NCBI GenBank assembly: GCA_016190925.1
Contig: JACPPQ010000109.1
Coordinates: 1,614 to 65,613, forward strand
DNA: 64,000 nucleotides
Origin: Chloroflexota bacterium
Lineage (GTDB): Bacteria > Chloroflexota > Dehalococcoidia > Dehalococcoidales > JACPPQ01
Reading direction: 5' to 3'
Part shown: positions 3,749-64,000 of the stretch, piece after piece
Numbering within the stretch: the first letter of the stretch is position 1
How the letters are laid out: each line of letters opens with the position of its first letter
Made by a program: the position numbers and the translations under genes
Notes under the pieces: model-generated
What the model was told of the DNA's origin: nothing
The model's input: only the letters and a program-made list of their open reading frames with translations
The model's database searches: none

Positions 3749-3755
3749 TGGATAA

Positions 3756-14184: not shown

Positions 14185-14256
14185 ATGGACATATCTCATT
14201 CGGATATAACCTGGAGAATATGAGACCCAGGTGCAGACACAGAAAGGAGAAATCGT

Positions 14257-15391: not shown

Positions 15392-15457
15392 ACATCAGGC
15401 CGCATCTCGATACCTTGTAAAAAGCAACTTTTCAGGGTGGTTGGTGCGGCCTGATGT
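15392..15457 (+). terminator. 13-bp perfect inverted repeat downstream of the binding-protein gene (possible terminator or processing structure)
   Basis: ACATCAGGCCGCA at 15392..15404 pairs with TGCGGCCTGATGT at 15445..15457, followed by CCATCTTTCC. The 40-nt loop is long for a classical intrinsic terminator. Confidence 0.35.
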
Positions 15458-20709: not shown

Positions 20710-22146
20710 GTGGGCACGGAATACAGGGACTTGAGGGAATGGCTCTCGAAAGTCGAGGAAATTGGAGAGCTCAGGCGGGGCAAATCCCTTACCGTAGAAG
20801 AAGACGCCGGCAGGGTAGCGGAGATATTGCCCGCCCTGGAAAACGGACCGGCGGTTATTCTGGATGAGTTAGTAGGGTACGAGCCCGGTTACCGAATCCT
20901 GCTTAATCTCTTCGGCAGCACTCGCAGGATAGCCCTGTCATTTGGATTTCCTATTGACTCGGATAGAAAATCGCTGCTTCAGCACTTTGAAAAGAAACTC
21001 GAAAAGATCGAGCTTATAAAACCAGCCTATGTCGAAACAGGCCCCATATTAGAAAACCGGCTGGTAGGGGATGATGTGAATCTTGACCGGTTTCCTGTTC
21101 CTCTGTGGCATAAGCACGATGGAGGTCCCTACATTGGAACAGGATGCGCGGTGGTTACGCAAGACCCTGACGACGGTTGGGTTAATTTGGGGACCTACAG
21201 AAACCAGCTCTTCGATAAGAAAACGGTGGGATTCTATATCACTTCGGCGGGGCAGGGAAGGGTTCATCGGGAAAAGTACTTCAGTCGCGGAAAACCATGC
21301 CCGGTGGCCGTTGTTTTCGGGATGGACCCTTTGCTATTTACCGGGGGTATGACTGACATTCCTCCAGGCATCTGTGAATATGATTGGGTCGGAGGTTGGC
21401 AAGGCAGGCCGGTGCAGGTTATCAAGGGACCTGTAACCGGTCTTCCGGTTCCTGCTAATGCTGAAATTGTAATCGAAGGTTTCTCTTATCCGGGAAAAAA
21501 CCGGCTCGAAGGCCCTTTCGGTGAGTCGAGGGGATATTATGCATCAGGCGCAAGCGAAGCACCTTACATCGAAGCTCAGGCCCTTTACTTCAGGAATGAA
21601 CCTATTCTTCTGGGAATGCCGTCCCAAAAACCGCCCTACGATGCAGACAAAGCTAGGCAGTATATGAAATCTGCGCTACTGAAACAACAGTTGAAGCAGT
21701 TCGGTATCCCGGGAATAACGGATGTATGGTGCTATGGAGAAGGTAGCTGCAGGCTTTTTGTGGTAGTCGCTATAAAGCAGCAGTATCCCGGACATTCCCG
21801 ACAGGCAGGTCATGCGGTTTATGCCAGCCGCGTAATCACTTACGGGCGCTATGTAATAGTGGTCGATGACGATATCGATGTTGCCGATATCAAAGATGTG
21901 CTGTGGGCTATTACAACCCGTTCTAGCCCGGCAACCTCGGTAGACATCATACACAAAGCGAGGTCATTTCAGTTAGACCCGCTAATCTCGCCTGAGGACC
22001 GGGCGGCAGGCCGATATTATGATTCTCGCGCCATCATCGATGCCACAAAGCCATTCGAATGGAAAGACCAGTTTCCTTTACCCGTACAGACAGACCAGGA
22101 GTACAGGCGGGAAACCAGAAAAAAGTTTGATTATCTTTTTAAATAG
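20710..22146 (+). CDS. UbiD-family decarboxylase/carboxylase, paralog 4
   Basis: This 478-aa ORF has a GTG start 2 nt after the previous stop. The motifs DDGWVNLGTYRNQ and EGPFGESRGYYASG are present. It is a close paralog of 59000..60439. Confidence 0.9.
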   Translation: MGTEYRDLREWLSKVEEIGELRRGKSLTVEEDAGRVAEILPALENGPAVILDELVGYEPGYRILLNLFGSTRRIALSFGFPIDSDRKSLLQHFEKKLEKIELIKPAYVETGPILENRLVGDDVNLDRFPVPLWHKHDGGPYIGTGCAVVTQDPDDGWVNLGTYRNQLFDKKTVGFYITSAGQGRVHREKYFSRGKPCPVAVVFGMDPLLFTGGMTDIPPGICEYDWVGGWQGRPVQVIKGPVTGLPVPANAEIVIEGFSYPGKNRLEGPFGESRGYYASGASEAPYIEAQALYFRNEPILLGMPSQKPPYDADKARQYMKSALLKQQLKQFGIPGITDVWCYGEGSCRLFVVVAIKQQYPGHSRQAGHAVYASRVITYGRYVIVVDDDIDVADIKDVLWAITTRSSPATSVDIIHKARSFQLDPLISPEDRAAGRYYDSRAIIDATKPFEWKDQFPLPVQTDQEYRRETRKKFDYLFK

Positions 22147-33306: not shown

Positions 33307-33484
33307 TTTACGTTAAGTAAACGCCCTGCGCCAAGAGCGCAGGGTAAAAAATATACAGGGTTTCCAAAGGGACGTCCGCCTCAGGCGGATGGCCGCACGC
33401 AGAGCTTGCCCCGTTCACAGCCTGCCCCGTACCTGATACGGGGGTCAATGCCCTGCCCGCCTCTGGCGGGCGGAATTGCTTTAC
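33307..33484 (+). repeat. Composite hairpin-mosaic repeat, copy 3
   Basis: Its hairpins are CCCTGCGC-caaga-GCGCAGGG, CGTCCGCC-TCA-GGCGGATG, CCCCGTA-cctga-TACGGGG and CCCGCC-TCT-GGCGGG, ending in GGAATTGCTTTAC. By eye it is almost identical to copy 2 over the 3' part. Confidence 0.85.
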
Positions 33485-33815
33485 AACAGTTGTTGGTTAG
33501 AACTATTCACTTATAGTCAACAACAGGGGATTTCTCCCCGTCAGGTATCAAACGTTCTAAAAATAGCATACCTGGATAAGAAATATCAAATTTTACTGTT
33601 ATTGCAGTTTCAATTGCTCCAAATCGAAATCATGGTCGAAGTAGTTAAGAAAATGGTGATACTATATAGCATTTCCTTCTTTTACACGATAGAACTATAA
33701 GAGGACTTAATCGTTTAAGAATCATCGAGGTGAGATTTATTCAAAAATTTAACAATAAATGCTCGTAATTGGTCAATAATACTACAAAAAATGTGAAAAA
33801 CAATCATATTTTATA

Positions 33816-43476: not shown

Positions 43477-45288
43477 GTGTACGGTTGGACGGGAAAGATA
43501 TTGAGGGTTGATTTATCCAGGGGAAAGACTTCTATCGAAGAGCTGGACCCAAAGGTGGCCAGGACTTACTTCGGGGGACGCGGACTGGGAGCGCGATACT
43601 TGTTGGACGAGGTTGACCCCGGGATAGAGCCGCTGAGCGAAGGAAACAAGCTCATGTTTGCCGCCGGGCCGGCAACAGGTGCTCCGATAGTGAGTGGAAA
43701 TCGATACAATGTTGTCACCAAGTCTCCGTTGACCGGGACCATTGCTGGACCGAGCTCCGCGGGATTCTGGGCGCCGGAATTGAAATTTGCCGGGTACGAT
43801 ATGGTTATCGTGGAAGGAAAGGCTAAGAATCCGGTATACGTCTGGATAGAAGATGACAAAGTTGAAATCAGGCCTGCGTCTCATCTCTGGGGGAAATCCA
43901 CCAACGAAACCCAGAAGGAAATCCGCAATGAGACCCGGCCGGAAACCAAAGTCGCCAGTATCGGCCCGGCAGGTGAGAGACTGGTCAGGTTTGCCTGCGT
44001 CATAAACGATGAAGGACGGGCGGCAGGGCGCGGAGGTGTTGGGGCTGTTGCCGGCTCAAAGAATTTGAAGGCAATTGCGGTAAGAGGTACTAAAAAAGTT
44101 CCCATAGCTGATACTGTTGAACTGAAGAGAATTGTGACCAGAATCCTGGGAAAGATGCCCAAGCCGTCAGGCCTCTCGCTGGGTGGAACACCATATGTAT
44201 TTGCCAGCGTCCAGGAGATTGGTATATTACCCACCAGGAATTTCCAGACCGGGGTTTTCGAGGGCTGGGAAAAAATAAGCGGTCAAGCGGTCAATAAAGA
44301 AGTGGTCTACAAGCACAGCGCCTGCTACCGCTGCCCGATTGGCTGCGGAAGATTAAGCCGGGTGACCAAGGCCCCCTTTGAAGGCGAAGGGGCAGGACCG
44401 GAATATGAGGGACTGTATGCCCTGGGTTCCAACTGTGGCGTGGATGATTTGTCTGCGGTGGTGAAAGCCTTTTTCCTCTGCAATGAGCTTGGGATGGATG
44501 TCATGAGTTGTGGTGCCACCATTGCTTGCGCCATGGAACTGTCCCAGAAGGGTTTTCTGCCGGAGAAAGACGTTGGAATGAAACTGAATTTCGGCGATGG
44601 CAGGACGCTGGTAGAGATGGTCAGGAAAACGGGGATGAGAGAGGGGTTTGGCGACCTCATCGCCGAGGGTTCCTACCGGCTGGCGGAAAGGTATGGTCAC
44701 CCTGAGCTTTCCATGAGCGTCAAAAAACAGGAACTGGCCGGCTATGACCCGCGTGGCGTGCAGGGACTTGGACTGGGATATGCCGTCTCGACAAGGGGTG
44801 CCTGCCATGTGCGCGGCGAAATCAACAACGCCGAGATTTGGGGAGCGCCTGTGAAACTGGACCGTCTAGCCACGAAGGGCAAGGCCAGCTACCTGATAAC
44901 CATTCAGGATGAGATTGCTGCCAGCGACTCGATGGGGATATGCCAGTTCTGCGGTGGTTACAAGATTGGCGTAGACGCCGTTATCGAAGAGATGGAACTG
45001 GTGAGCGGAGTTGACCTCTGGGCTGAAGGATTCTATCAAATGGGCGAAAGAATATGGAATATGGAAAAGATTTTCAACATGATGGCGGGCTTTACCGCCG
45101 CAGATGATACCCTCCCTAGGAGATTTCTTGAAGAACCCATGCCGGAGGGACCTACCAAAGGGCATGTTTGCAGACTTTGGGAGATGCTGCCCGAATATTA
45201 CCATCTGAGGGGCTGGGATAAAGAGGGAAGGCCAACCAGGGACAAGCTGAAAGAGCTTGGCCTCCTTGAATTTGCCAGGAAAATTTAA
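43477..45288 (+). CDS. aor: Aldehyde:ferredoxin oxidoreductase family (tungstopterin type), paralog 1
   Basis: This 603-aa ORF starts with GTG. The N-terminus reads MYGWTGKILRVDLSRGK. The cluster motif CYRCPIGC and the pterin-region motif GLGYAVSTRGACHVRG are present. Confidence 0.9.
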   Translation: MYGWTGKILRVDLSRGKTSIEELDPKVARTYFGGRGLGARYLLDEVDPGIEPLSEGNKLMFAAGPATGAPIVSGNRYNVVTKSPLTGTIAGPSSAGFWAPELKFAGYDMVIVEGKAKNPVYVWIEDDKVEIRPASHLWGKSTNETQKEIRNETRPETKVASIGPAGERLVRFACVINDEGRAAGRGGVGAVAGSKNLKAIAVRGTKKVPIADTVELKRIVTRILGKMPKPSGLSLGGTPYVFASVQEIGILPTRNFQTGVFEGWEKISGQAVNKEVVYKHSACYRCPIGCGRLSRVTKAPFEGEGAGPEYEGLYALGSNCGVDDLSAVVKAFFLCNELGMDVMSCGATIACAMELSQKGFLPEKDVGMKLNFGDGRTLVEMVRKTGMREGFGDLIAEGSYRLAERYGHPELSMSVKKQELAGYDPRGVQGLGLGYAVSTRGACHVRGEINNAEIWGAPVKLDRLATKGKASYLITIQDEIAASDSMGICQFCGGYKIGVDAVIEEMELVSGVDLWAEGFYQMGERIWNMEKIFNMMAGFTAADDTLPRRFLEEPMPEGPTKGHVCRLWEMLPEYYHLRGWDKEGRPTRDKLKELGLLEFARKI

Positions 45289-45310: not shown

Positions 45311-46345
45311 ATGCAGAAAGCTAAAGTAATCCAGTGTGGTCTGGGAGCTATAGGTGTAGAGGTAAGCAAATTAATTCTGGAAAAGAAAGATATCGAGCTC
45401 GTGGCCGCAACCGATATCGCAAAACAACTGATAGACAAGGACCTGGGTCAGGTTCTGGGTCTGGAGCGCAAGCTCGGTATAAAAGTGAGGGATGATGCCG
45501 GGGAAGTGTTCAGGAAGACTGATGCCGATGTGGTAGTGGTTACAACCAGCAGCCATTTCGAGCGGATATTCGGCACCGTCAGGGAAGCGCTTTCGGCTGG
45601 CAAGAATGTAATCACCACCTGCGAAGATGCGTGCTTCCCGTGGACCAGAAATCCGGACTTGTCGCGCCAGATTGATGAATTAGCCAAAAGCAAGGGAGTT
45701 ACTTTCCTGGGCACCGGAATAAACCCGGGTTTTATGATGGACTACTTGCCCATAGCCCTCACCGGCATTATGAAAAGGGTGGACAAGGTTCGCATTCGCC
45801 GGGTGGCTAACATGGCTACCTGCGGCCTCACCGATTGGGAACTTTTCGGGTACGGAAAAAAGCTCGAGGCCTTTAACGAAGGGCTGGCTAAAGGGCAAAT
45901 CGGGGGGTTCATCGCCTTCAGGCAGATTATGGAGATGATAGCCCGGGCGCTTCAATGGGGAAAGATAGATTATGAGGAAGAAAAAGAAGGCTTGATTACC
46001 AGGTCCAGGCGGGTGGCCAAGGCCGGTGTGGTGGAGCCGGGCACCGTATACTCGGTCAAACAGACTGCGCGTGGCCTGAAGCAAGGCAAGGAAGTTATTG
46101 CCTTTGAGGAGTTTTTTGTCATCAATCCCAGCCTCGAAGAAGATGATTTGGAAGTTGGAAATTTCGCCACCATCGAGGGAGAGCCATCGGTAGTGGTCAA
46201 TGCCACCGGGCAGCAGGCTTCCCAGATGGCTGCCACGACCGCCGCTCATGTGGTGAACTCGATACCTGCCGTGATTGAGGGGCCGCCGGGATTGCTCACA
46301 GTATATGAGTTACCGCCATCACCTTGCTTGCCGGGGAAGGAATAA
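45311..46345 (+). CDS. DapB-fold dehydrogenase (2,4-diaminopentanoate dehydrogenase / amine dehydrogenase-like), paralog 2
   Basis: The track ORF starts at 45257, but the ATG at 45311 follows GAGGAG. The sequence contains KVIQCGLGAIGVEVSK, FLGTGINPGFMMDYLP and ARALQW. Confidence 0.6.
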   Translation: MQKAKVIQCGLGAIGVEVSKLILEKKDIELVAATDIAKQLIDKDLGQVLGLERKLGIKVRDDAGEVFRKTDADVVVVTTSSHFERIFGTVREALSAGKNVITTCEDACFPWTRNPDLSRQIDELAKSKGVTFLGTGINPGFMMDYLPIALTGIMKRVDKVRIRRVANMATCGLTDWELFGYGKKLEAFNEGLAKGQIGGFIAFRQIMEMIARALQWGKIDYEEEKEGLITRSRRVAKAGVVEPGTVYSVKQTARGLKQGKEVIAFEEFFVINPSLEEDDLEVGNFATIEGEPSVVVNATGQQASQMAATTAAHVVNSIPAVIEGPPGLLTVYELPPSPCLPGKE

Positions 46346-46347
46346 AC

Positions 46348-48228
46348 ATGTCTTTTGATGCGTGCGGATATACGGGAAAGCTATTGAGGGTCGACCTATC
46401 AAGCGGGAAAATTTCAGTCGAGCCGCTGAATATGGCCTGGGCCAGGCAATATATTGGCTGCCAGGGACTGGGCGTGAGATACCTGTTCGAAGAGCTGGCT
46501 CCCGGAATCGACCCTCTGGGACCGGAAAGTAAGATAGTCCTTCTCACAGGACCGCTTACAGGGACTATTGCCCCGTGCTCTCCTAAATACACGCTGATTT
46601 TTAAGTCGCCGCTGACCAATATACTCTACGATAGCACGTCGGGCGGGTATTTCGGTGCCGAGCTTAAATATGCCGGCTACGATGGCCTCATAATAGAAGG
46701 AAAATCGCCAAAACCGGTCTATCTTTTAATCAGAGACCAGAGGGTTGAGCTTCAGGATGCTGCCCGGATTTGGGGTAAAGATACCTTTACCGCCACTGAT
46801 ATGCTCAAACAGTGGTGGGGAGACGACCTGAGAGTTACGGTCATTGGCCTGGCGGGGGAAAACCAGGTCAGATTTGCCAGCGTTCTGACGGAATATGCTA
46901 AAGCCAACGGCAGGGCTGGTGGCGGGGCAGTCTTTGGCGCCAAGAACCTTAAGGCCATAGCGGTCAAAGGCTCCGGCTCGGTAAGTGTGGCCAATCCGGA
47001 GGCACTGGTTGAACTCTCACTGAAATTGATGGCGGAAACCCTGGTTGAAAACCCGGAGCAGCTGGTGTTCACCGGTTGGAAGGGTGGAGAAGGCACTATA
47101 AGCATAATGGACTGGGCTAATGATTATGGCTGCCTGCCCACCAGGAATTTCCAGGCTGGCAGCTTCGACAGAAAAAGCAAGATAGATGCCAGGGAAGTCA
47201 AGAAAATCACCAAGAAGGAGAAAGCCTGCTTCTCCTGTCCTATGGGTTGTGCGCATCAGGTTAAGATAGAGCAAGGCCAGCACAAGGGGACTGGAGTAGG
47301 TAGCTTCGAATACGAGAGCATAGCCATGCTTGGCTCGAACTGCGATATCAGTGACCTGGCTGTCGTTGCCAAACTGAACGAGCTATGCAATAAACATGGC
47401 ATGGATACTATCACCGCAGGAAACGTAATCGGCTGGGCAATGGACTGTTTTGAGAGAGGTCTCCTTACCGAGAAGGATACGAACGGTCTGCCCTTGCGCT
47501 TCGGCAACAATGAGGCCGCCATCGAGTTACTGGAAAAAATTGCTAGGAGAGAGGGAATCGGAGCCCTCCTGGCTGAGGGAGTAGCCAGGGCTTCAGCCAG
47601 AGTCGGGAAAGGCTCGGAAGAATTCGCCATGCATGTCAAAGGGCTGGAAATCCCCGCTTATGACCCCAGGGTAGCCATCGGAATGGGGCTTGCCTATGCC
47701 ACCGCTCCTCCGGGTGCGGCGCATACCCGCGCGTTCCCCATCAGCGGCGCCCTCTTTGGCGGATGGTGGGTTGGTGCCGACCCGGTCAAGCTGGACCCCA
47801 GAAAGCCGGAAAATTTTGCGCAGGTATGCATCCAGCAAAACCACTGGCAGGCTTACCGGTTCAGCACCGGCCACTGCGATTTCGGCCTGCTGGAGCCGGG
47901 ATGGAAACTCCCTGAACTGCTGGAAAACTGTACCGGGTGGCCGGAGATAAAGGACTGGAGAAAAATCGGCGAAAGGATTATCAACACCTACCGGCTATTC
48001 AGCATCAGGGAAGGAATCAGTCGGAAAGATGATACTCTACCTGCAGCATTCTTCAAGAAACCTCTTCCGGCTCCGGCGGAAGGCGCGGTCATCTCTCCGG
48101 AAGATTTCGAATTCATGTTGAACGAGTATTACGAACTCAGAGGCTGGGACCACGAGGGCAGGCCCACTCAGGAAAAGCTGAGAGAGCTTGGTATCCAAGA
48201 ACTTGGACTTAAGATTGGAGTTAGATAG
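46348..48228 (+). CDS. aor: Aldehyde:ferredoxin oxidoreductase family, paralog 2
   Basis: The track ORF starts at 46324. The ATG at 46348 follows GGGGAAGGA and lies 2 nt after the previous stop. The sequence contains YTGKLLRVDLSSGK and CFSCPMGC. Confidence 0.9.
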   Translation: MSFDACGYTGKLLRVDLSSGKISVEPLNMAWARQYIGCQGLGVRYLFEELAPGIDPLGPESKIVLLTGPLTGTIAPCSPKYTLIFKSPLTNILYDSTSGGYFGAELKYAGYDGLIIEGKSPKPVYLLIRDQRVELQDAARIWGKDTFTATDMLKQWWGDDLRVTVIGLAGENQVRFASVLTEYAKANGRAGGGAVFGAKNLKAIAVKGSGSVSVANPEALVELSLKLMAETLVENPEQLVFTGWKGGEGTISIMDWANDYGCLPTRNFQAGSFDRKSKIDAREVKKITKKEKACFSCPMGCAHQVKIEQGQHKGTGVGSFEYESIAMLGSNCDISDLAVVAKLNELCNKHGMDTITAGNVIGWAMDCFERGLLTEKDTNGLPLRFGNNEAAIELLEKIARREGIGALLAEGVARASARVGKGSEEFAMHVKGLEIPAYDPRVAIGMGLAYATAPPGAAHTRAFPISGALFGGWWVGADPVKLDPRKPENFAQVCIQQNHWQAYRFSTGHCDFGLLEPGWKLPELLENCTGWPEIKDWRKIGERIINTYRLFSIREGISRKDDTLPAAFFKKPLPAPAEGAVISPEDFEFMLNEYYELRGWDHEGRPTQEKLRELGIQELGLKIGVR

Positions 48229-49584: not shown

Positions 49585-49672
49585 TCTCCCTTTCGCAAAG
49601 GGAGATTGTGAGGGATTTTCCACGGGTAGGTTGAGGGATTTCAAGTTCCCTACATCCTCTATTCGGAAAGGG
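49585..49672. repeat. Hairpin module TCTCCCTTT-cgc-AAAGGGAGA followed by a duplicated GAGGGATTT motif
   Basis: The 9-bp stem spans 49585..49605. TGTGAGGGATTTTC and TTGAGGGATTTC follow it. The same module type (CCCCCTTT-cgc-AAAGGGGG + GGGGATT x2) occurs at 61035..61068. Confidence 0.75.
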
Positions 49673-50235: not shown

Positions 50236-52116
50236 ATGCACGGGTGGGCGGGGAAACGACTCAAGGTATACCTGACCGAAGGAAAGCTGGTCGAGGAGGA
50301 GCTAACCGAGGAATTCAGACAGGAGTACCTGGGCGGAAGAGGGTTTAATGTCAGAACCGTATTTGACGAGATAGCTCCGGGAATTGACCCCTTAAGCCCC
50401 GAAAACGTCTTGACAGTATCGACAGGTCCCCTGGCCGGCACTGCGGCACCGGGCATGACCAGGTGGACCGTAACCGCCAAATCTCCATTGACCGGAATAA
50501 TCGGCGACGGCAACGGGGGCAGCGACTTTGCCGCCGAACTCAAATTCGCGGGCTACGACCAGATTGTTGTATACGGGCGGGCTGCCTCGCCGGTCTACTT
50601 GTTTATCAAAGACAGTCGAGTCGAGCTGAGAGACGCATCCAGGCTATGGGGCAAGACGACTTGGGATACCCACAAGTTAATCGTCAAAGAGCTGCATGAC
50701 AGCCAAATCCGCGACTTGATTATCGGGCCGGCAGGGGAAAACCTGGTCCGTTTTGCTAAGATTATCACCAACATGACCAGGGCAGGTGGCAAGTGCGGGA
50801 TGGGGGCGGTCATGGGGTCGAAGAATCTCAAAGCAATAGTAGTGCGCGGGTCTGGCTCGGTCAAAATAGCCAGCCCCGATGCTTTTTATCAAGCCGCCCA
50901 GCAGGCCAACGCTAAGTTGCTGGCTTCGCGTTTTCATCGCCAGGTCCTGGGAGAAGAAGGCACTCCCTATCTTATAAAGTTTCTAACCTCGGAGCGTTCG
51001 TTAACTACAAGAAACTCCCAGGCAGGCTATTTCGAAGGTTGGGAGAAGTTAACTTCGGAGGCATTTGAATCCAGCTACGCAGTTAAACATGGAGCTTGTT
51101 TCTCCTGTCCCATCGCTTGCAGTCATTATTACCGCGTAAAGGATGGGCCATACGCTACTCACGGCGGCTCCAACCAGTTTGGCACGCTCTACCCCTTTAC
51201 TTCCAGGTGCGGAAGTGACAATCTGGCTGCCTCGTTGCACCTGACTACCCTTTGTGACCAGATGGGGATAGATACACATTCCTGTGGGGCGACGATATCA
51301 TTTGCCATGGAGGCCTGGGAAAAGGGATTGATTACTTTTAAGGATACCGATGGGCTTGACCTTTCCTGGGGGAATGCCGACTCAATGATAAAATTGGTAC
51401 AGAAGATAGCATACCGCCAGGGTTTTGGCGATATCCTGGCTGAGGGTTCACTGAGGGCCTCCGCGCAGATTCCTGGTTCAGCTTCCTGCCTGACCGTTGT
51501 CAAGGGACTGGAATGCAGTTCGTACTACCCCGGCGAAGGTGAGCACAAGATAATCGGGCTTGCCTTTGCGACATCGCCGATAGGTGGAAGCCACCATCGG
51601 GGAGGATTCATGGGACTGCACAGCCACCCCAAAGTGAGACAGGCCCTGGGCGAAGAGCTCGCTCGCCACCTTCGTGACCACACCACCTACAAAGGACAGG
51701 GCGTGCTCCTCGTCGTAGAAAACGACTTTGTGGCCGCTCTTAACTCAATGGAAACCTGCCTTCTGCTTTGCCAGTATGGCCTCACCGCGGATGACCTGGC
51801 CGGGCTGGTGTCGGCAGCTACCGGCTTTGACATCGACGGTGATGCGCTGTTGAAGATAGGCGAAAGAGTTTTCAATGTAGAGAGGGCGTTTAATGTGCGT
51901 GAGGGAATCCGGCGTAAAGACGATACCCTGCCTGAGCGTTTCTTTGTTGAAAAGGAAACGCCTTATGGAAAGACCGGCATAAACAAGGCGAAATTCCAGG
52001 AAATGCTGGATGAGTTTTACAGCTTCCGAGGCTGGGATAAAGAAGGTGTCCCAACTAGAAAAAAGCTTGAGGAACTCAATCTCGGATATATCGCGGAGCA
52101 GATTCCGGCTTCCTGA
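50236..52116 (+). CDS. aor: Aldehyde:ferredoxin oxidoreductase family, paralog 3
   Basis: This 626-aa ORF begins MHGWAGKRLKVYLTEGK. It contains CFSCPIAC and GLAFATSPIGGSHHRGG. Confidence 0.9.
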   Translation: MHGWAGKRLKVYLTEGKLVEEELTEEFRQEYLGGRGFNVRTVFDEIAPGIDPLSPENVLTVSTGPLAGTAAPGMTRWTVTAKSPLTGIIGDGNGGSDFAAELKFAGYDQIVVYGRAASPVYLFIKDSRVELRDASRLWGKTTWDTHKLIVKELHDSQIRDLIIGPAGENLVRFAKIITNMTRAGGKCGMGAVMGSKNLKAIVVRGSGSVKIASPDAFYQAAQQANAKLLASRFHRQVLGEEGTPYLIKFLTSERSLTTRNSQAGYFEGWEKLTSEAFESSYAVKHGACFSCPIACSHYYRVKDGPYATHGGSNQFGTLYPFTSRCGSDNLAASLHLTTLCDQMGIDTHSCGATISFAMEAWEKGLITFKDTDGLDLSWGNADSMIKLVQKIAYRQGFGDILAEGSLRASAQIPGSASCLTVVKGLECSSYYPGEGEHKIIGLAFATSPIGGSHHRGGFMGLHSHPKVRQALGEELARHLRDHTTYKGQGVLLVVENDFVAALNSMETCLLLCQYGLTADDLAGLVSAATGFDIDGDALLKIGERVFNVERAFNVREGIRRKDDTLPERFFVEKETPYGKTGINKAKFQEMLDEFYSFRGWDKEGVPTRKKLEELNLGYIAEQIPAS

Positions 52117-52169: not shown

Positions 52170-53477
52170 TTAGCCCATCCGGCCGGGAAGCCAGAGGGCT
52201 ATTGCGGGAAAAACAATAACAATTGCCATTATTATTACATTGAGCACGATGAATGGGAGCCCGGCCTTGTAGATATCTCCCATAGTGGTCCCGGGTGGAG
52301 CAACCCCTTTCATTACAAACAGATTCAAACCGAAGGGTGGGGATATCGCCGCTATCTCTGCATTAATGAGATAAATGACGGCGAACCAGACTGGATTAAA
52401 CCCCAGACCGTTAACAACGGGCATAAAGACGGGAAGGGTTATCATCATGATGGGCAGCACGTTCATGAACATGCCCAGAATCCCTACGATAAGCTGCATG
52501 GCGATAAATATCAATATTGGAGTGACAGGAAGACCCGTGGCAAGTTCAGTCAGATTTCGACTGACCCCGCCAAAGGCCAATATCTGGCTGAAGGCCCCCG
52601 ATGAGGCTATGATAAAAAGTATCATGCCGGTAACGTGAAGAGTGCTGGCCAGGGATTTTTTCATGACAGCCCAGCTCAGGCGCTTGTGTGAGGCGACCAG
52701 CAAGAGTGTACCCAATACGCCGGAGACCGCGGCTTCGGTCGGGGTTGCGATACCCAGTACGATAAGCCCGATGACCAGGAAGACTATAATACTTATCGGC
52801 AGGATATGCTTTGCGAGTGCTGCAAGCTTTTCCGAAAGGGGTACCCTGGTTATTTCATAGGGGGGTGCCAGAGTGGGGTCCAGCCGGCACCGGGTGACGA
52901 TGTATGTAGTAAAAATGACAGCGGATAAGAGTCCTGGAAGAATAATAGCTAACAGAATCTGGCCTATGGAGATTTCACCCAGTGCCCCCAGGAGAACCGC
53001 CAGGCCGCTTGGAGGAATCATCGTAGCCAGACCTCCGCTCCCCAGAATAGGCCCCAGGCTCATCGGCTTTTTATAGCCCCGTTTCTCCATTTCAGGTATC
53101 AAAGTTGACCCGAGCATGGCCACGCTGGCCATGCTGGCCCCTGTGAGGGTGGCAAGCAAAGTCCCGGCTCCTACGGCAAGCAGGCTCATCCTGCCCGGCA
53201 GACGCCCCATCCACTTATCCACGCTATCGATAATAATGCTGCCCATTCCAGACTGAAATAAAACGTCCCCCATCAATATGAACATGGGGATGGGTAAGAG
53301 GGTAAAGCTGGTCACGGAACCGAAAATGCTACGTACCAGTAAGTCCATATCGCCGTGCCGTACCACCAATAGTCCCACCATGTTTATGGCTAGAAAACTG
53401 AAAGCTACGGGCATTCCGGCTGCCATCATGACTATCAGCCCGCCGAACATTATGAGGAGTACCAGTTGCCAGTCCAC
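52170..53477 (-). CDS. dctM: TRAP transporter large permease (DctM family), second system
   Basis: This 435-aa polytopic ORF contains WMGRLPGRMSLLAVGAG and EKRGYKKPMSLGPILGSGGLATMIPPS. It is a paralog of 1324..2643. Confidence 0.9.
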   Translation of the reverse strand: MDWQLVLLIMFGGLIVMMAAGMPVAFSFLAINMVGLLVVRHGDMDLLVRSIFGSVTSFTLLPIPMFILMGDVLFQSGMGSIIIDSVDKWMGRLPGRMSLLAVGAGTLLATLTGASMASVAMLGSTLIPEMEKRGYKKPMSLGPILGSGGLATMIPPSGLAVLLGALGEISIGQILLAIILPGLLSAVIFTTYIVTRCRLDPTLAPPYEITRVPLSEKLAALAKHILPISIIVFLVIGLIVLGIATPTEAAVSGVLGTLLLVASHKRLSWAVMKKSLASTLHVTGMILFIIASSGAFSQILAFGGVSRNLTELATGLPVTPILIFIAMQLIVGILGMFMNVLPIMMITLPVFMPVVNGLGFNPVWFAVIYLINAEIAAISPPFGLNLFVMKGVAPPGTTMGDIYKAGLPFIVLNVIIMAIVIVFPAIALWLPGRMG

Positions 53478-53482
53478 TTACG

Positions 53483-54004
53483 TCAATCCATCCTCGCCTG
53501 ATTATTAGGTGCTTTCCACTTTTGAACATAACCCTGGATTTTTTTTGCGAGCTGGGAAAACAGCAGCAAAAATCCCAGGGGAATAATGATTTCCAGCACT
53601 CCGGCAGGAGGTCGCAATGGCGTTGGGTAGAGATAGCCGCTTTCGAAGAAATAGATGACGCTTTTTGTCCCAAACCAGACCAAAACCAGGCAAATAACAC
53701 TGCTGGCGATGGAGGTAACAAGGTTCACCAAGAGCCTTGTTCTTGGCTTCAATCGATTCAGGAGCAGGTCCACCGCTACGTGGCCGTCTCTTTTTAGTAC
53801 CCAGGCCGCCGCCAGAAAGGTAATAAACAATAAGCTGTACTCGCTGAGCTCGGTTATACCCTTTATCGGTCGCCGGAAGAAAAACCTCATGATAATCTCT
53901 GCGAGAATTCCCAGCCCGGTAATAACAATCAGCAAGGCTGCCAGAAACGCCGAGCTGTTGATAAGGGTGTCGACAAGGCCGGATATCTTCGCTATGAACT
54001 TCAT
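53483..54004 (-). CDS. dctQ: TRAP transporter small permease (DctQ family), second system
   Basis: This 173-aa ORF has about four hydrophobic helices and ends 5 nt upstream of dctM. Confidence 0.8.
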   Translation of the reverse strand: MKFIAKISGLVDTLINSSAFLAALLIVITGLGILAEIIMRFFFRRPIKGITELSEYSLLFITFLAAAWVLKRDGHVAVDLLLNRLKPRTRLLVNLVTSIASSVICLVLVWFGTKSVIYFFESGYLYPTPLRPPAGVLEIIIPLGFLLLFSQLAKKIQGYVQKWKAPNNQARMD

Positions 54005-54187
54005 AGAAATTCAAAACCCCATGAATGCACCACTGAATATGAGAGGCATTTCATCGTAAACAACCGCAGGCACAGCCCGCGACACCTTTGCCCTTCGGGC
54101 ACGGCCTGAGCTCCACAATATGGCCGGTTCACCCTGCTGTTACCGTAACGTTCAAGACTTACGTTTTCTCACGAAAATACATTTAGT

Positions 54188-54425
54188 GGTGGCACTCGCC
54201 TCAGGCGAGTGCCTGCCTGTGCAAGAAACATTTTCATACTTCGTGGTGCGCCTCAGGCGCATGGAGGATTACCAAGAAAATAGCCTTTGTCACCCCTGCG
54301 AAGGCAGGGGTCTACCGCCGCCGTCGAGGCGGCATCCCGATGTCCATCGGGACTAATTAACCTGTCCTTCCTAAGGGAAGGAATTGCCTCGACGGCAATG
54401 GATAGATTCCCGCTTTCGCGGGAAT
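54188..54425. repeat. Array of eight consecutive, non-identical GC-rich hairpins in the dctP-dctQ spacer
   Basis: The stems lie at 54191..54213 (10 bp, TCA loop), 54247..54261, 54293..54310, 54317..54333, 54335..54352, 54365..54382, 54383..54399 and 54406..54425. I checked each base by base. Confidence 0.85.
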
Positions 54426-54485
54426 GACAGTTATTTGTTGTTGCTATTTTCATCCTTCGTGGGTGGTGTAACGCGCTATGGGTAA

Positions 54486-55619
54486 TTACTTGTTATATAA
54501 GTCCATTAGTGTTTTGATGGCGTCCGGTTGCTGCTTAGCGAGCTCCTGCCATTGTGATGAGTAGGCCAGGTCAAGGTAGCGTTTGGCCTCCTCCGGCGGC
54601 AGTTTGATGAACTTTACGCCGGCATTTTTCATATTCTGTACGTACCTGTCATAAAAGCCGGTCATCAACTTGGCAGTCTCCGGTTCCATCTCGATGCGCG
54701 CCTGCTCCATCAGGTCCTGAATGTTCTTGGGAAGACTTTTCCACTTGTCTAAATTCATCAGGCTCAGTGGCGCCCCTATATAATAGGGATGGTCAACTAC
54801 TACTAAACCCTTGATTTGATGCAGGCCAAGGGCCACCAGCGTGTCCGCGGCGTTAATGTAAACGTCAATAACGCCGGTCTCCATGGCAGTGTATGTCTCT
54901 GCATAAGGCATTGGCTTGTAGCTCATACCGACTGAGGCGGCGGAAGCGTTACCAATTGTGCCCAATCCGCCGGCCCTCAAACCCTTCAGGTCGTCCAGCT
55001 TGGCAACCGGTTTCCTGCTGGCTGCATAGAAAATGGGGTCCTTTGAGGCATCATCCAGGCCCAGAAAATAGAATCCCGCTTCTGCGGCGTATTTGCGCAA
55101 AGCGGTTACTGCCCCGCGTTTTCGCTCTTCATCCGCTGTTAGCCGTGAGAGCCCGGGAGTATTGAGCGCCGGCATCATTGTCTCCACCATTGTGCCGAAG
55201 GTTGAAACGAGGTCTACCTGCCCCTTCTTCACTGCCAGTGGTTGCTGGCCTGCTGGTATGACTTCCGGACCTCCGCGGATTTTGATGGAAAACTGTCCGG
55301 GATATTTTTCAGCGGCCAGCTTATTGATACGGTCAATGGTCATCAACCATATCTTCATCTTTTCCCGGTCCGTTGGCAATACGGTAACCATTTCAAGCAC
55401 TATCGGCTGTGTCTTTGGCGTCGGCGTGGCAACCGGCGTCGGCGTTGGCGTGGGCTTAGGCGCAGGTGCAGGCGCTGGCTTAGGCGTCGCTGTAGGTGCG
55501 GGTGATGGCGCAGGCGCAGGTTTTTCTTGCGTAGCGCAGGAGGCTGCCATGGATAATACTCCCGCGATTGCTAAAAGGCAAACGATGCTCAATATCCTGA
55601 TACTTTTACTATTTATCAT
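54486..55619 (-). CDS. dctP: TRAP substrate-binding lipoprotein (DctP family) with long Pro/Ala/Thr linker, second system
   Basis: This 377-aa ORF has an AAGGAGGGG ribosome-binding site. Its signal peptide ends in AASC, followed by KPAPAPSPAPTATPKPAPAPAPKPTPTPTPVATPTPK. The mature domain is DctP-like. Confidence 0.85.
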   Translation of the reverse strand: MINSKSIRILSIVCLLAIAGVLSMAASCATQEKPAPAPSPAPTATPKPAPAPAPKPTPTPTPVATPTPKTQPIVLEMVTVLPTDREKMKIWLMTIDRINKLAAEKYPGQFSIKIRGGPEVIPAGQQPLAVKKGQVDLVSTFGTMVETMMPALNTPGLSRLTADEERKRGAVTALRKYAAEAGFYFLGLDDASKDPIFYAASRKPVAKLDDLKGLRAGGLGTIGNASAASVGMSYKPMPYAETYTAMETGVIDVYINAADTLVALGLHQIKGLVVVDHPYYIGAPLSLMNLDKWKSLPKNIQDLMEQARIEMEPETAKLMTGFYDRYVQNMKNAGVKFIKLPPEEAKRYLDLAYSSQWQELAKQQPDAIKTLMDLYNK

Positions 55620-58999: not shown

Positions 59000-60439
59000 C
59001 TATGTCTTAAACAGGTGCGCAAATCTTTTCCAGCTTTCTCTTCTATACTCCTGGTCTGATTGAACAGGCATGGGGAATTTATCTTTCCACTCGAAGGGCA
59101 TGGTAGCATCGATAATAGCGCGGGAATTCATGTACCGTCCTGCCGTGCGGTCTTCGGGAGAGACCAGGGCATCCAGGGCGCTTGTCCTCGCCCTGCGAAT
59201 GATGTCGACAGAAGTGGCCGGGTCACACCGGGTTAATACCGCCCACAGTACATCCTTCAGGTCCGTGACATCAATGTCTTCATCGACCACTACCACTAAT
59301 TTGCCGACGTTCGACCCTGTGATAGCGTACACCGCGTGTCCCACCTGCCTCGAATGGCCGCCGAACTGCTGTTTGATGGCTACCGCGGTCAGGAGTTTGC
59401 AGGCCCCCTCTCCGTAGCACCAGATATTGCTTATCCCTTGAATGCCGGTCTGCTTCAACTCGTTGAAAACGAGCGCGGATTCGATATATTGCCGCGCCTT
59501 ATCCGCATCATACGGTGGTTTTTCAGATGGCACTCCCAGCAGGATAGGGTCATTGCGGAAATAGACCGCCTCTACATCCACATAAGGAGCTTCACCGCTA
59601 CCGGAGGCATAATACCCCATCCACTCGCCAAACGGACCTTCCAGCCTGGTCTTTCCCGGATAAGAGAAGCCTTCTATCGCTATCTCGGCGGCTGCTGGTA
59701 TTGGAAGTCCGGTCACAGGCCCCTTTATCACTTTCACAGGACTGCCGCGCCATCCTCCGACCCAGTCCAGTTCGCTCACACCCCACGGCAGGTCGGTCAT
59801 TCCTCCTGCGAACAGAAGCGGGTCGCTTCCAAACACGATAGCTACTGGACACGGCTTTCCTTTGGCAATATACTTCTGCCGATGTGCGTAACCATGCGGC
59901 ACACGGGAGCTGAAGAAACCCACAGTCTTCTTGTCCAGAAGTTGGTTCCTGTAAGTGCCTACGTTGACCCATCCTTCATCCGGGTCTCGTGTTATTACCA
60001 TGCATCCCGTGCCGATGTAAGGCCCTCCATCCTGGCGGTGCCACATGGGGACAGGAAAGCGGTTCAAGTCTACTTGGTTTCCGGTGAGCTGGTTCTCAAA
60101 TATGGGGCCGGTATCAACGTATTCTGGGGGAATTAATTTCAGCCCCGCTAGCTTCTTCTTGAAATGCTCCAGCAAGGACTTCCGGTCTGAAACTAGGGGA
60201 AAGCCGAACGTGATAGCTATCTGGCGGATACTGCCATACGGGTTAATCAGAATGCGGTAGCCGGGCTCGAAACCGGGGAATTCGTCCAGGACAATAGACG
60301 GTGCGGTTTCCATGCTGGCGGCAATTTCAGCAATTCTGCCTGTATCTTCTTTCAGGTCTATCGATTTGGCTATCTTTAGTTCGCCGATTTCTTCAACCTT
60401 TGCTAACCACTGCCGCAAGTCTTCATAGTCTACTCCCAT
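59000..60439 (-). CDS. UbiD-family decarboxylase/carboxylase, paralog 5
   Basis: This 479-aa ORF contains DEGWVNVGTYRNQ and EGPFGEWMGYYASG. It is collinear with paralog 4 from the first residue (MGVDYEDLRQWLAKVEEIGEL versus MGTEYRDLREWLSKVEEIGEL). Confidence 0.9.
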   Translation of the reverse strand: MGVDYEDLRQWLAKVEEIGELKIAKSIDLKEDTGRIAEIAASMETAPSIVLDEFPGFEPGYRILINPYGSIRQIAITFGFPLVSDRKSLLEHFKKKLAGLKLIPPEYVDTGPIFENQLTGNQVDLNRFPVPMWHRQDGGPYIGTGCMVITRDPDEGWVNVGTYRNQLLDKKTVGFFSSRVPHGYAHRQKYIAKGKPCPVAIVFGSDPLLFAGGMTDLPWGVSELDWVGGWRGSPVKVIKGPVTGLPIPAAAEIAIEGFSYPGKTRLEGPFGEWMGYYASGSGEAPYVDVEAVYFRNDPILLGVPSEKPPYDADKARQYIESALVFNELKQTGIQGISNIWCYGEGACKLLTAVAIKQQFGGHSRQVGHAVYAITGSNVGKLVVVVDEDIDVTDLKDVLWAVLTRCDPATSVDIIRRARTSALDALVSPEDRTAGRYMNSRAIIDATMPFEWKDKFPMPVQSDQEYRRESWKRFAHLFKT

Positions 60440-60530: not shown

Positions 60531-60640
60531 GTTATAGTGTATACTATTCTCAAGTCAATTGTTAATGGATGTCTGACGGATTTTTGCGTCAGTTTTTGTA
60601 AGGCTAATACTATGCTTACTCTCCAGTCTTTTCCTACACG
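60531..60640 (-). promoter_or_regulatory. TGTAGG-box upstream element, divergent copy e (read on the minus strand)
   Basis: The reverse complement reads TGTAGGAAAAGACTGGAGAGTAAGCATAGTATTAGCCTTACAAAAACTGACGCAAAAATCCGTCAGACATCC... The first ~45 nt are collinear with copies a-c. The GATGTCTG(A/G)C motif is present in the inverted orientation. It lies upstream of the UbiD-5 operon. Confidence 0.5.
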
Positions 60641-60886
60641 GTTGGCTTATGGAAAGGGGAGTTGCAACAGGCACAAATTAAATTTTGCTAGAAAACACTC
60701 AGCATGACAGCGTTGGTGACTGATTACAACCTCGATTATGAAGTTATTGACAATTACCAAGCAAACATGGTTATATAACTTACACTGCCCGGCAAATTTC
60801 CTGCGGACAAGGATAAAAGGACCTGCACCGTGTTAGTACTTAGTTGCAATATTGAGCGTAATGATGTTTTGGTGTTTCGTACATCT

Positions 60887-61347
60887 GGTGGCACTCGCCT
60901 CAGGCGAGTCCCTTTAGGGAGAACCCTTCAGGGTGAACCCTGCCTGTGCACCTTGACTAACAATTACGCTGATTCATGCAACTTAGCACTAGTGTGCCGT
61001 ATCAGAAATACGTTGACTAAATATTTTGTCATTTCCCCCTTTCGCAAAGGGGGATTAAGGGGGATTCTGAACCTGTCCGACAGAAAATTCCTCTCAGTCT
61101 CCCTTTCGTAGAGGGAGAGAACTTATTCAAGTTACTTGCGAGACAGGATACTAGGATGGTGAATCGCAAATAACGTTAGCCCGGCATTCACCCATTACTT
61201 CGAAAATACCCAAATTTCCTCTCCCTTGAGAAGGAGAGGATTAAAGCTTGCCCAAGCCTGCCCGCCGTAGCCTTGTGCGTTGGCAGGAGCGAAGCCGAAG
61301 GGTACTTGTTACGGGGGGCAATGCCCTGTGGTGCGGAATTGCTTTAC
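60887..61347. repeat. Mosaic of hairpin modules filling the divergent UbiD-5 / UbiD-6 intergenic region
   Basis: GGTGGCACTCGCCTCAGGCGAGT at 60887 is the same 23-mer as at 54188. Other modules are CCCCCTTT-cgc-AAAGGGGG (61035..61053), TCTCCCT-n7-AGGGAGA (61098..61118) and CCTCTCC-n8-GGAGAGG (61218..61239). The 3' half of the composite repeat spans 61244..61347. Confidence 0.8.
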
Positions 61348-61410
61348 TTTTCGGACAGCTTCCTGGATGACAGCAAATTCCTAACCTACCAAAATCTGAA
61401 GGAGTGAACG

Positions 61411-62844
61411 TTGGCATATAAAGACTTGCGGGAATTCATGGCTTTACTGGAAAAGAGGAGACTTCTGGTTAGAGTTAAGTCAGAAGTGGACCCTTCCTGG
61501 GAAATCAACGGCGTTACCAGGAGGCTTCAAGAGGTAGGCGGACCGGCAGTGCTTTTTGAAAATGTAGGAGGGCACCAGGTCCCTGTTCTTTCCGAGCTTG
61601 TTGGAACGCCGGAGCGCCTGGCTTTAGCCCTGGGGATGGACTCTTCCACAACTGAAAAGCAAATCACAGAGGAGTGGGTCCGGCGGATTGAACATCCTGT
61701 TCCACCAAGGTTGGTAAGCACTGGTCCATGTAAAGAGAACATCCTGAAAGGTATTAAAGCTGACCTGAATGCGGTATTCCCGCCTGTAATCTGGCACAAA
61801 GGAGATGGCGGACCGTTTATCGGTGTTCTTGGCCTGCAAGTCACCAGGGACCCGGAGACCGGGGTACAGAACACAGGTATTTACCGCCAGATGGTCAGGA
61901 GCAAGAATGAGACCGGCCTTTATATGCCGGCCTACCAGCACGGCGGCCAGCACTTGCAAAAATGGGCGCGATTATATCCCGGCAAGCCCATGCCTCTAGC
62001 CGTTGTCCTTGGGCCGGAACCTTGTTACCTGCTTGCCGCCGGTGCCAAATTTCATCATCCGCCTGGAGAGGATGTCTATACGGGTGCTCTGAGACAGGAG
62101 CCATTGGAGCTGGTCAGGTGCGAGACCTGCGACATCGAGGTGCCTGCCACGGCTGAAATCATTCTGGAAGGTGAGGTCTATCCCGAAGAGTTCAAGACGG
62201 ATGGCCCATTTGGAGAGTACACCGGTTTCCTCGGCGGAGAACAAGAATTCAACGTCTTCCATTTGAAAGCTATAACCCATCGCAATAATCCTATCTTCCA
62301 GGGTACCCGGGAAGGCGCTCCACGCGGCAAGGGCTGGGTAGAAAGCGGCCTCCTGTGGATTAAGGGAGAAGAATACCAGTTATATAAGGAGCTTAAGAAG
62401 ATTAACGGGGTGATAGATGTTTGTGTGCCACTGTGGTGCAGCGGTTTCCACGCGGTGGTCTCAATCAGGAAGTTGAGGGCCGGACAACCTTTTCAAATTA
62501 TCCAGAGAATTTTCGGAGATGAAGAATTCGGCTCGCTCATAAAACATGTAATAGTGGTCGATGAAAACATCGATGTCCGCAATCCAAAAGAAGTTGAATG
62601 GGCCGTAGCCAACCTCGTCCAGGGTGACAGGGATATATTGGTAGTTCCCAGGTGTCCCGGCGAAGGACTGGATACCTCTCAACCTTATTCTAAACGTTTC
62701 TGGACGTCAAAGGTTGGCATTGATGCAACCGTACCGACTTACGAATATCAGGCTGAAGGACGGACGCCGCCACCCACATGTCTTGACCCGGACATCGTGG
62801 CCAGGGTAATCGCGCAGTGGGATAAATACGGGATAAATATATAG
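61411..62844 (+). CDS. UbiD-family decarboxylase/carboxylase, paralog 6
   Basis: This 477-aa ORF has a TTG start after AAGGAG, supported by alignment with paralog 7 (MAYKDLREF...). The motifs GVQNTGIYRQM and DGPFGEYTGFLG are present. Confidence 0.9.
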   Translation: MAYKDLREFMALLEKRRLLVRVKSEVDPSWEINGVTRRLQEVGGPAVLFENVGGHQVPVLSELVGTPERLALALGMDSSTTEKQITEEWVRRIEHPVPPRLVSTGPCKENILKGIKADLNAVFPPVIWHKGDGGPFIGVLGLQVTRDPETGVQNTGIYRQMVRSKNETGLYMPAYQHGGQHLQKWARLYPGKPMPLAVVLGPEPCYLLAAGAKFHHPPGEDVYTGALRQEPLELVRCETCDIEVPATAEIILEGEVYPEEFKTDGPFGEYTGFLGGEQEFNVFHLKAITHRNNPIFQGTREGAPRGKGWVESGLLWIKGEEYQLYKELKKINGVIDVCVPLWCSGFHAVVSIRKLRAGQPFQIIQRIFGDEEFGSLIKHVIVVDENIDVRNPKEVEWAVANLVQGDRDILVVPRCPGEGLDTSQPYSKRFWTSKVGIDATVPTYEYQAEGRTPPPTCLDPDIVARVIAQWDKYGINI

Positions 62845-62904: not shown

Positions 62905-63150
62905 TCGGGGTGTCTAAGAGGAATGCCGACCCCTCTTCTAATATCCTATGGGGGTGGGGTTCCCATCCAGGGGTTTTGGCGAGTGGTGCGAGCCAAAACC
63001 CCCTAAAAGCATCTGAGGCTGTCCAAAAATGGCCTGTCACTCTGAACGAAGTGAAGAATCTGGGGGATGTAAGGGGAAGTGAATTCCCCTCCCCGAGAAT
63101 CTTCAGTCGTCCGCCTCGGCGGACACTCTCAGAATGACATTTCGGACAGC
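62905..63150. repeat. Hairpin modules in the spacer between the tandem UbiD-6 and UbiD-7 genes
   Basis: An 11-bp stem GGGGTTTTGGC-n11-GCCAAAACCCC spans 62970..63002. GGGGAA-n5-TTCCCC lies near 63073. GTCCGCC-tc-GGCGGAC spans 63109..63124. TTCGGACAGC at 63141 is also seen at 3661 and 61350. Confidence 0.75.
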
Positions 63151-63314
63151 CTCTTAGGGTGAGGGTAATATTCTTCCAAATTAGTGCCACAAAAAGACAT
63201 CTATTTTGGACAAGCGTAATTTGGAGATTCGGAATTTATTTTGATTTTCAAAGAGCTATTCAAAGCTTTGTCCAGGCGATAAATATACACCATTCTTAAA
63301 GATGGGGAAAAACT

Positions 63315-64000
63315 ATGGCATATAAAGATTTAAGAGAATTCATAGCTCTGCTGGAACAGAAAGGCCACCTGGTCAGGGTGAAGGCTGAGGTGAACCCGTC
63401 ATGGGAGATAAATGGCATCACCAATAAACTTACCAGGGAAAACGGCCCGGCAGTGCTTTTTGAAAATGCAGGAGGGCACAAAGTCCCCGTTCTTTCCGAG
63501 CTGCTGGGAAGGTCCCAGAGACGATATGCACTGGCGTTGGGTCTTGATACGGATGATGTGAGAGTAATAAGAGACGAATGGCTGAAGAGGATTAACCATC
63601 CCATAACCCCGAGATTAGTAAAGACCGGCCCGTGCAAGGAGAATATCCTCACAGGTGACAGGGCTGACCTGAACGCTATCTTCCCTCCGGTGCTCTGGCA
63701 CAAAGGCGATGGCGCACCGTTTGTTGGTACACAGGGCCTTCAGGTGACCAGGGACCCGGAAACGGGAGTCCAGAACACCGGTGTTTACCGGCAAATGGTG
63801 TTCTCTAAGAACGAGACCAGCCTCATGATGCAGCCCTTCCAGCACGGAGCGCAGCATCTTCAGAAATGGGTGCGCCTGTACCCCGGCAAGCCGATGCCTG
63901 TGGCGGTTGTCATCGGCCCTGAACCATGCTACCTTATAACGGCTGGTGGAAAGTTCTCACACCCGCCGAGCGAAGACGCCTACGCGGGAGGGCTGAGGCA
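63315..64000 (+). CDS. UbiD-family decarboxylase/carboxylase, paralog 7; runs off the right edge
   Basis: This ORF is absent from the ORF track because the window edge truncates it. My translation from the ATG at 63315 gives MAYKDLREFIALLEQKGHLVRVKAEVNPSWEINGITNKL...GVQNTGVYRQM... About two-thirds of residues match paralog 6 by eye. Confidence 0.85.
   Translation, partial: MAYKDLREFIALLEQKGHLVRVKAEVNPSWEINGITNKLTRENGPAVLFENAGGHKVPVLSELLGRSQRRYALALGLDTDDVRVIRDEWLKRINHPITPRLVKTGPCKENILTGDRADLNAIFPPVLWHKGDGAPFVGTQGLQVTRDPETGVQNTGVYRQMVFSKNETSLMMQPFQHGAQHLQKWVRLYPGKPMPVAVVIGPEPCYLITAGGKFSHPPSEDAYAGGLR

Follow-up and report, generated by a model that had tools for sequence, protein, structure and literature searches.

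The long gaps that separate dctP from dctQ in two paralogous TRAP operons of a Chloroflexi MAG, and the hairpin arrays that they contain, are real. The preliminary description of them was in part overstated, and on our best reading they are the product of fairly ordinary repeat accumulation. From the analysis of a 64-kb stretch of DNA (hereafter the window), we consider it reasonably probable that both spacers are mosaics of small, dispersed, hairpin-forming elements of the REP/MITE-like kind, which recently accumulated in this Chloroflexi lineage at a junction where TRAP and TTT operons ordinarily have a short gap and one stem-loop, and that any stabilisation of dctP mRNA and lowering of dctQM expression would be a by-product or exaptation of this process.

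The transporter genes of the two operons are as follows.

1324–2643, minus strand: dctM1 (Pfam match)
2654–3169, minus strand: dctQ1 (Pfam match)
3756–4811, minus strand: dctP1, 351 aa (Pfam DctP)
52170–53477, minus strand: dctM2 (Pfam DctM)
53483–54004, minus strand: dctQ2 (Pfam DctQ)
54486–55619, minus strand: dctP2, TRAP substrate-binding protein, 377 aa (Pfam DctP, E 2.6e-27)

DctP2 shows 100% identity to NCBI MBI2831914.1, from a Chloroflexi MAG, and DctP1 shows 100% identity to MBI2831870.1, which is encoded on the same contig as MBI2831914.1; the two binding proteins share just 28% identity with each other (BLASTP). The gene order of system 2 is UbiD (59000–60439), M20 peptidase, FAD-binding flavoprotein, 4Fe-4S ferredoxin, dctP2, a 481-nt gap, dctQ2 and dctM2. 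That of system 1 is a phenylphosphate-carboxylase-gamma-like ORF, UbiD (5451–6917), a 90-aa ORF (5108–5380), dctP1, a 586-nt gap, dctQ1 and dctM1, and in both systems all genes are on the minus strand. Pfam matches support the earlier observation that UbiD lies upstream of dctP in both operons, and the gene calls agree with the dctP–dctQ gaps first reported (54005–54485 in system 2 and 3170–3755 in system 1). The accompanying claim that every other junction measures 4–30 nt holds for system 2 and fails for system 1. Here 639 nt separate UbiD1 from dctP1, a distance that shrinks to 296 nt if the 90-aa minus-strand ORF, which lies between UbiD1 and a family A repeat element and for which no Pfam match was found, is a genuine gene; this gap contains a repeat element with four hairpins. 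The spacers had also been described as devoid of plausible ORFs, and we likewise obtained no Pfam match for any spacer ORF. A coding function was rejected: the ORFs of 43–90 aa cross the hairpins, and the only residues that they have in common are ‘MK’ after the ATG of a shared module.

Several other genes and repeats of the window deserve mention. UbiD-family decarboxylase genes, five of them with Pfam support, are found among 5451–6917, 12427–14037, 20710–22146, 59000–60439, 61411–62844 and about 63315–64000. The segments 61407–62096 and 63311–64000 are tandem copies with 71–75% identity, which suggests a sixth UbiD paralogue cut by the window end. Between the tandem UbiD copies, at 63048–63140, a long imperfect inverted repeat, TGTCACTCTGAA...CTCAGAATGACA, surrounds two nested hairpins and has a MITE-like look. 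Three aldehyde:ferredoxin oxidoreductase paralogues are also present (43477–45288, 46324–48228 and 50236–52116). In combining UbiD and aldehyde:ferredoxin oxidoreductase genes with uptake genes of the TRAP, TTT and MFS types, the region resembles an island for the anaerobic catabolism of aromatic acids.

The features of the two spacers, followed by the further copies of their repeats in the window, are given below.

54005–54185 (181 nt), minus strand: dctQ2-proximal part of spacer 2, fold z = 0.08, with no promoter-like or terminator-like site
54186–54225, plus strand: family B element, an 11-bp hairpin GGCACTCGCCT/AGGCGAGTGCC (54191–54213) followed by TGCCTGTGCA
54231–54275, minus strand: module C2, intact, hairpin 54247–54261, 215 nt downstream of the dctP2 stop
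54292–54401, minus strand: five more unrelated short GC-rich hairpins (54385–54401, 54365–54382, 54335–54352, 54317–54333 and 54292–54311)
54402–54429, minus strand: hairpin TGTC-ATTCCCGC-GAAA-GCGGGAAT-CTA, 8-bp stem and 4-nt loop, with a CGTC-1/dRS3-type REP layout
54437–54490 (to 54500 in the alignment), minus strand: module C3, degenerate, hairpin arm decayed, overlapping the dctP2 stop (nhmmer E 4.7e-13)
3358–3543, plus strand: family A composite element in spacer 1, opposite to the operon, with subterminal hairpins
3625–3704, minus strand: two AGAGGG/CCCTCT-type hairpins, 3625–3650 (10-bp stem) and 3686–3704 (6-bp stem)
3716–3758, minus strand: module C1, hairpin 3734–3748, overlapping the dctP1 stop in the same register as C3
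4904–5112, plus strand: family A copy in the gap upstream of dctP1
33307–33485, plus strand: family A copy in a divergent AsnC-regulator/methylmalonyl-CoA-mutase intergenic region (non-TRAP)
61259–61347, plus strand: partial family A copy just upstream of another UbiD gene
60886–60945, plus strand: second family B copy, in a divergent UbiD/UbiD intergenic region, with a 28-nt nested insertion

The eight GC-rich stem-loops attributed to 54191–54425 of spacer 2 are all present; six of them have perfect stems of 7–11 bp, and the stems of the other two measure 6 bp. Of the 35 GC-rich hairpins in the 64-kb window whose stems are 7 bp or longer, six fall within these 235 nt, which form the densest hairpin cluster among the sequences examined. 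When folded as minus-strand RNA, spacer 2 as a whole gives z = −7.0, and its array part (54186–54430, mRNA strand) gives z = −7.9. Structure is weaker in spacer 1, where the z-score on the mRNA strand is −3.7 for the whole and −1.4 to −2.3 for its parts. Along the mRNA, spacer 2 runs from the dctP2 stop through module C3, six unrelated hairpins, module C2 and family B to 181 unstructured nt and dctQ2, and spacer 1 runs from the dctP1 stop through module C1, two to three AGAGGG/CCCTCT-type hairpins and an inverted family A to 173 nt and dctQ1. Consistent with the description of REPs as short (20–40 nt), imperfect, GC-rich extragenic palindromes, the hairpins of spacer 2 (eight, of 15–23 nt) and of spacer 1 (four to five) are all intergenic. 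Six of the eight hairpins in spacer 2 are single-copy within the 64-kb window, including each of the five at 54292–54401. A single GGTAG on the mRNA strand, located between 54317–54333 and 54292–54311, could tag either of these hairpins in the manner of the GTAG-tagged REP superfamily and, being a lone 4-mer, may also have arisen by chance.

The repeats from which the spacers are built occur in the window as four copies of family A, two of family B and three of module C. Family A is a non-coding, MITE/PATE-like element of ~190 bp, and three of its four copies in the 64 kb lie outside the dctP–dctQ gaps; with one of them at 4904–5112, upstream of dctP1, the repeats evidently extend beyond the dctP–dctQ junction. 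Hairpins are located near both ends of the element. Its right end is sharp at ...GGAATTGCTTTAC, past which point the copies diverge. Each of the three full copies is flanked by TTTAC on the left, and all four copies have TTTAC as their end, a pattern that is read from only three to four copies. Signs of turnover at the DNA level are evident in all three repeats. The loop of the left hairpin of family A is inverted between copies (3377–3395 matches 33342–33324 in reverse), one family A copy retains the stem via a compensatory GCGC/GCGG change, the second family B copy has received a nested insertion, and module C is duplicated in spacer 2, where C3 and C2 flank the block of six hairpins.

The arrays had been described as placed exactly between dctP and dctQM. 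They are not peculiar to this junction, as four or more further intergenic regions of the window contain the same families and similar hairpins, and hairpin-rich stretches also occur at 49.6, 60.4–61.4 and 62.8–63.3 kb. A further hairpin family, TC(T/C)CCCTTTCG(C/T)A(A/G)AGGG(A/G)GA, is represented three times, in two intergenic regions (49585–49605, 61034–61054 and 61098–61118). The hairpins of A, B and C have the core GCCTCAGGC in common, for which we counted seven matches against 1.0 expected, and the six intergenic matches all have the same polarity on the plus strand. Moreover, all nine copies of A, B and C point the same way along the chromosome, whichever strand their neighbouring genes occupy. 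Such uniformity counts against an RNA signal, whose orientation should track that of transcription. An account of the uniform orientation in terms of the replication strand was rejected, the leading strand being unassignable since GC skew follows the gene strand in the window.

No transposase, of the Y1/RAYT or any other type, was detected among the main ORFs of the 64-kb window. Neither family A nor family B matched anything in the IMG/VR scan, and a protein search with the translated family A frame gave no match. A candidate sigma-54 promoter in the family A end (TGGC..TTGC) was rejected by eye, since the spacing is off by one in both variants. The stem GAAGAGGGG-N6-CCCCTCTTC gave 32 matches in IMG/VR, which are unrelated phage terminators with different loops. 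Our best reading rests in part on copies of the repeats outside TRAP junctions, but the three copies of module C are all in TRAP spacers, and neither alignment nor nhmmer detected more of them in the 64-kb window.

The ~40-nt module reported to be shared by the two spacers was readily confirmed. The segments 3717–3752 and 54231–54265 (C1 and C2) are 92% identical over 36 nt, although the DctP proteins of the host operons are just 28% identical. On the mRNA strand, module C reads GTAAT..CCATGCGCCTGAGGCGCA..CACGAA..ATGAAAA. Its plus-strand end is ATTAC, the reverse complement of which includes G-TAA, and family A likewise ends in TTAC. C1 and C3 cover the dctP stop codon in one register, AAG TAA TTA, and the presence of the module at two dctP stops in the same register is not as random dispersal predicts. 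When metagenome sequence was scanned for the 20-nt core of this module, eight matches were obtained, with no evidence of TRAP association. Six of these fall by chance inside high-GC coding sequence, and the other two (L027 and L028) come from an unrelated low-GC organism, where they form part of a hairpin cluster. This cluster (metagenome Ga0105096; L027 61–175 and L028 1440–1541) consists of different short hairpins and includes the exact module C 20-mer GTGCGCCTCAGGCGCATGGA; comparable heterogeneous hairpin clusters therefore occur outside the Chloroflexi lineage studied here. Module C had no match in the IMG/VR scan.

One of the hairpins in spacer 2 can be assigned to a recognised class. 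CGTC-1 REPs, to which the dRS3 element of Neisseria belongs, carry a CGTC, TGTC or CCTC tag on a hairpin whose 8-bp stem opens with A then T; its loop measures 4 nt, and the short tail that follows is close to CCA (Di Nocera et al. 2013, PMC3733652). The hairpin at 54402–54429 shares the TGTC tag (a listed variant of CGTC), the 8-bp A/T-starting stem, the 4-nt loop and the short tail, which is CTA in place of the usual CCA; the other seven hairpins of spacer 2 do not fit this layout. The exact 24-mer of 54402–54429, TGTCATTCCCGCGAAAGCGGGAAT, occurs 32 times in 28 unrelated IMG/VR contigs (L030–L057) with 40–69% GC, where it is mostly followed by CCA(G) and has no consistent orientation with respect to neighbouring ORFs. 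By a rough estimate, the number expected by chance is far below one. That a 24-mer should be identical to the base across so many unrelated genomes is striking in itself. Of the five hairpins at 54292–54401, three were scanned against IMG/VR, and none of these has an exact match there. Judged from its sequence, the hairpin at 54402–54429 belongs to the cosmopolitan CGTC-1/dRS3-type REP class. Chloroflexi are not among the phyla listed with CGTC repeats (Di Nocera et al. 2013, PMC3733652), and hairpins of the CGTC-1 type thus reach a phylum that was unlisted for them in 2013.

We then compared the same junction in other TRAP and TTT loci. Relatives retrieved from a genome-collection scan with DctP2 had only 24–33% identity and were used as a spacing baseline, not as orthologues. 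The dctP–dctQ gaps in 15 other TRAP loci, whose DctP identities are below the 69% of the closest orthologue, measure 21–221 nt and often contain one 12–14-bp hairpin, and four of the seven other TRAP spacers tested (L006, L009, L010 and L019) fold significantly better than shuffles, with z-scores of −2.9 to −3.9. Single intercistronic stem-loops in other TRAP/TTT operons (L006, L008, L009, L010, L019 and L020, and tctC–tctA in the window) occupy the same position as the arrays, directly after the binding-protein gene. In those operons, however, one 12–14-bp hairpin is found in 57–221 nt, whereas the spacers studied here have five to eight hairpins in 481–586 nt, derived from repeat elements. 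Within the window, tctC is followed by a 12-bp stem ahead of tctA (10324–10361), and the orphan dctP3 (14257–15378), which has no adjacent dctQM, is followed by a 13-bp stem (15392–15457, z = −5.4) and then by hydantoinase A/B genes, so that a hairpin follows all four binding-protein genes (dctP1, dctP2, orphan dctP3 and tctC). Taken together, the other loci and the window suggest that one hairpin is the usual arrangement after a binding-protein gene, and that the 0.5-kb arrays are a lineage-specific addition. A literature search found no paper describing dctP–dctQ hairpin arrays. A separate repeat of ~180 nt, with 74–81% identity between copies, is located upstream of tctC (8903–9087), upstream of the orphan dctP3 (14070–14251), inverted near an MFS gene (7290–7387) and at 60565–60638, and is probably a common promoter/operator region of paralogous uptake genes.

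The preliminary description went further and proposed that the arrays set the ratio of binding protein to permease, a claim that it tied to the presence of arrays in orthologous operons. The closest orthologue of DctP2 (L014), with 69% DctP identity and the same UbiD–dctP–dctQ–dctM order, lacks them: its gap is 127 nt and has no excess structure (z = +0.9). This weakens the idea of dedicated, selected cis-regulatory devices that set the DctP:DctQM ratio via mRNA processing, stabilisation or partial termination. The start of the orthologous spacer has weak similarity to C3, so that an old sequence of the C type may already have been present before the arrays arose. A device of this kind would account for an outsized structured spacer at the same junction in both paralogous operons, and for the occurrence of module C after both dctP stops in one register despite such divergent proteins, but apart from this module the two arrays differ completely, their building blocks also occur in intergenic regions away from TRAP genes, where their orientation does not follow transcription, and the junction upstream of dctP1 holds the same kind of element. 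Nor is there sequence support for partial termination, since no intrinsic terminator, that is, no hairpin followed by a T-run, was found on the mRNA (minus) strand in either spacer. The ratio-setting proposal has partial support in that a single hairpin at this junction is common in other loci and is present after four out of four binding-protein genes in the window; nothing shows that the arrays were purpose-built, and the dispersed elements are present in non-TRAP gaps as well. Overall, we regard dedicated devices as unlikely.

It seems similarly improbable that the repeat clusters are neutral debris, kept at an intergenic site that tolerates them and without measurable effect on TRAP expression. 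Neutrality would fit arrays that are lineage-specific and heterogeneous, in which one module copy (C3) has decayed and the same elements are found in promoter regions and intra-operon gaps alike. However, hairpins have been maintained by compensatory changes and, from what is established for REP and other intercistronic hairpins, structure with a z-score of about −8, together with an untranslated stretch of 0.5 kb inside an operon, should influence both decay and polarity.

A more specific account, which we consider quite unlikely, starts from the ends of the repeats. Module C could mark the end of an element that transposes site-specifically as single-stranded DNA; the TTAC terminus of the element would target and regenerate G-TAA stop codons, and it would have landed repeatedly on the stops of binding-protein genes; the arrays would then have grown by serial insertion in the same orientation at the regenerated site, and the host would have co-opted the elements as a stabiliser hairpin after dctP. 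This would explain both the same-register module at dctP paralogues with 28% identity and the intact and decayed copies that flank the six-hairpin block. Gene conversion between the paralogous operons would also fit the sharing of module C.

Very unlikely is an arrangement in which the spacers separate transcription units, with dctP ending at the hairpins and dctQM having its own promoter in the unstructured 170–180 nt ahead of dctQ, or in which family A encodes a small or antisense RNA on the plus strand. In favour of such an arrangement, neither spacer has excess structure in its dctQ-proximal part, and family A has the sole terminator-like site of the spacers, a plus-strand hairpin with a T-rich tail, is always on the plus strand and lies twice just upstream of plus-strand genes. 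Against it, a simple consensus scan found no sigma-70-like promoter in either spacer on either strand, a weak counterargument because Chloroflexi promoters may escape such a scan, and a search of Rfam 15 gave nothing in the spacers at gathering thresholds (the top sub-threshold hit, FtrB, scored 27 bits against a threshold of 66).

The accumulation of dispersed repeats remains our preferred explanation, and the following consequences would be expected from it. The spacers are probably transcribed by read-through within the dctPQM mRNA, because co-directional genes flank them without a terminator-like or promoter-like signal. The hairpins would act as a barrier to 3′-to-5′ exonucleases, so that the dctP segment decays more slowly, and the 0.5 kb of structured RNA, being untranslated, would uncouple dctQM, which would then be expressed at a lower level. 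A more stable dctP mRNA and a lower dctQM output are thus plausible side effects of repeat accretion, by analogy with known intercistronic repeats. An excess of binding protein would then be a by-product or exaptation of the accretion of selfish elements, and not the output of a dedicated device.

In their structure, the family A copies may be akin to MITEs and to IS200/IS605-derived palindrome-associated elements (PATEs), the latter of which leave no classical target-site duplication after inserting 3′ of a fixed tetra- or pentanucleotide and are biased in strand. Family A is non-coding and ~190 bp long, with subterminal hairpins at both ends, TTTAC at the end and left flank, and a single orientation, but no cognate transposase (TnpA) was seen in the window, and the putative target site is read from three to four copies. 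More generally, a long gap that looks ‘empty’ in a MAG operon can prove to be a pile-up of repeats and not a missing gene. None of these findings overturns current understanding.

The closest parallel comes from enterobacteria, whose malE–malF and hisJ–hisQ gaps contain REP/BIME clusters; these are transcribed together with the operon and should shield the upstream segment against 3′ exonucleases. These facts about the mal and his repeats are reportedly due to Higgins, Newbury and colleagues. The analogy with malE–malF drawn in the preliminary description is reasonable for the first hairpin of each spacer, because a stem-loop at this position is common and is present after all four binding-protein genes in the window. 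In the mal and his operons, as here, the palindromes lie between genes for a periplasmic binding protein and a membrane component and are dispersed repeats of the genome. Those operons encode ABC transporters of enterobacteria, whereas the operons studied here encode TRAP transporters of a Chloroflexi MAG. The mal and his arrays are made up of copies of one REP consensus, whereas the array of spacer 2 has eight different stems; the arrays here are also much longer (0.5 kb), and their effect on the mRNA is a predicted one. REP and MITE families are defined by genome copy number, whereas the copies described here were counted within 64 kb. If the arrays do tune the DctP:DctQM ratio, the malEFG REP paradigm would extend to TRAP transporters and to Chloroflexi, and the recruitment of selfish palindromic repeats to this operon junction would be shown for a distant phylum as well.
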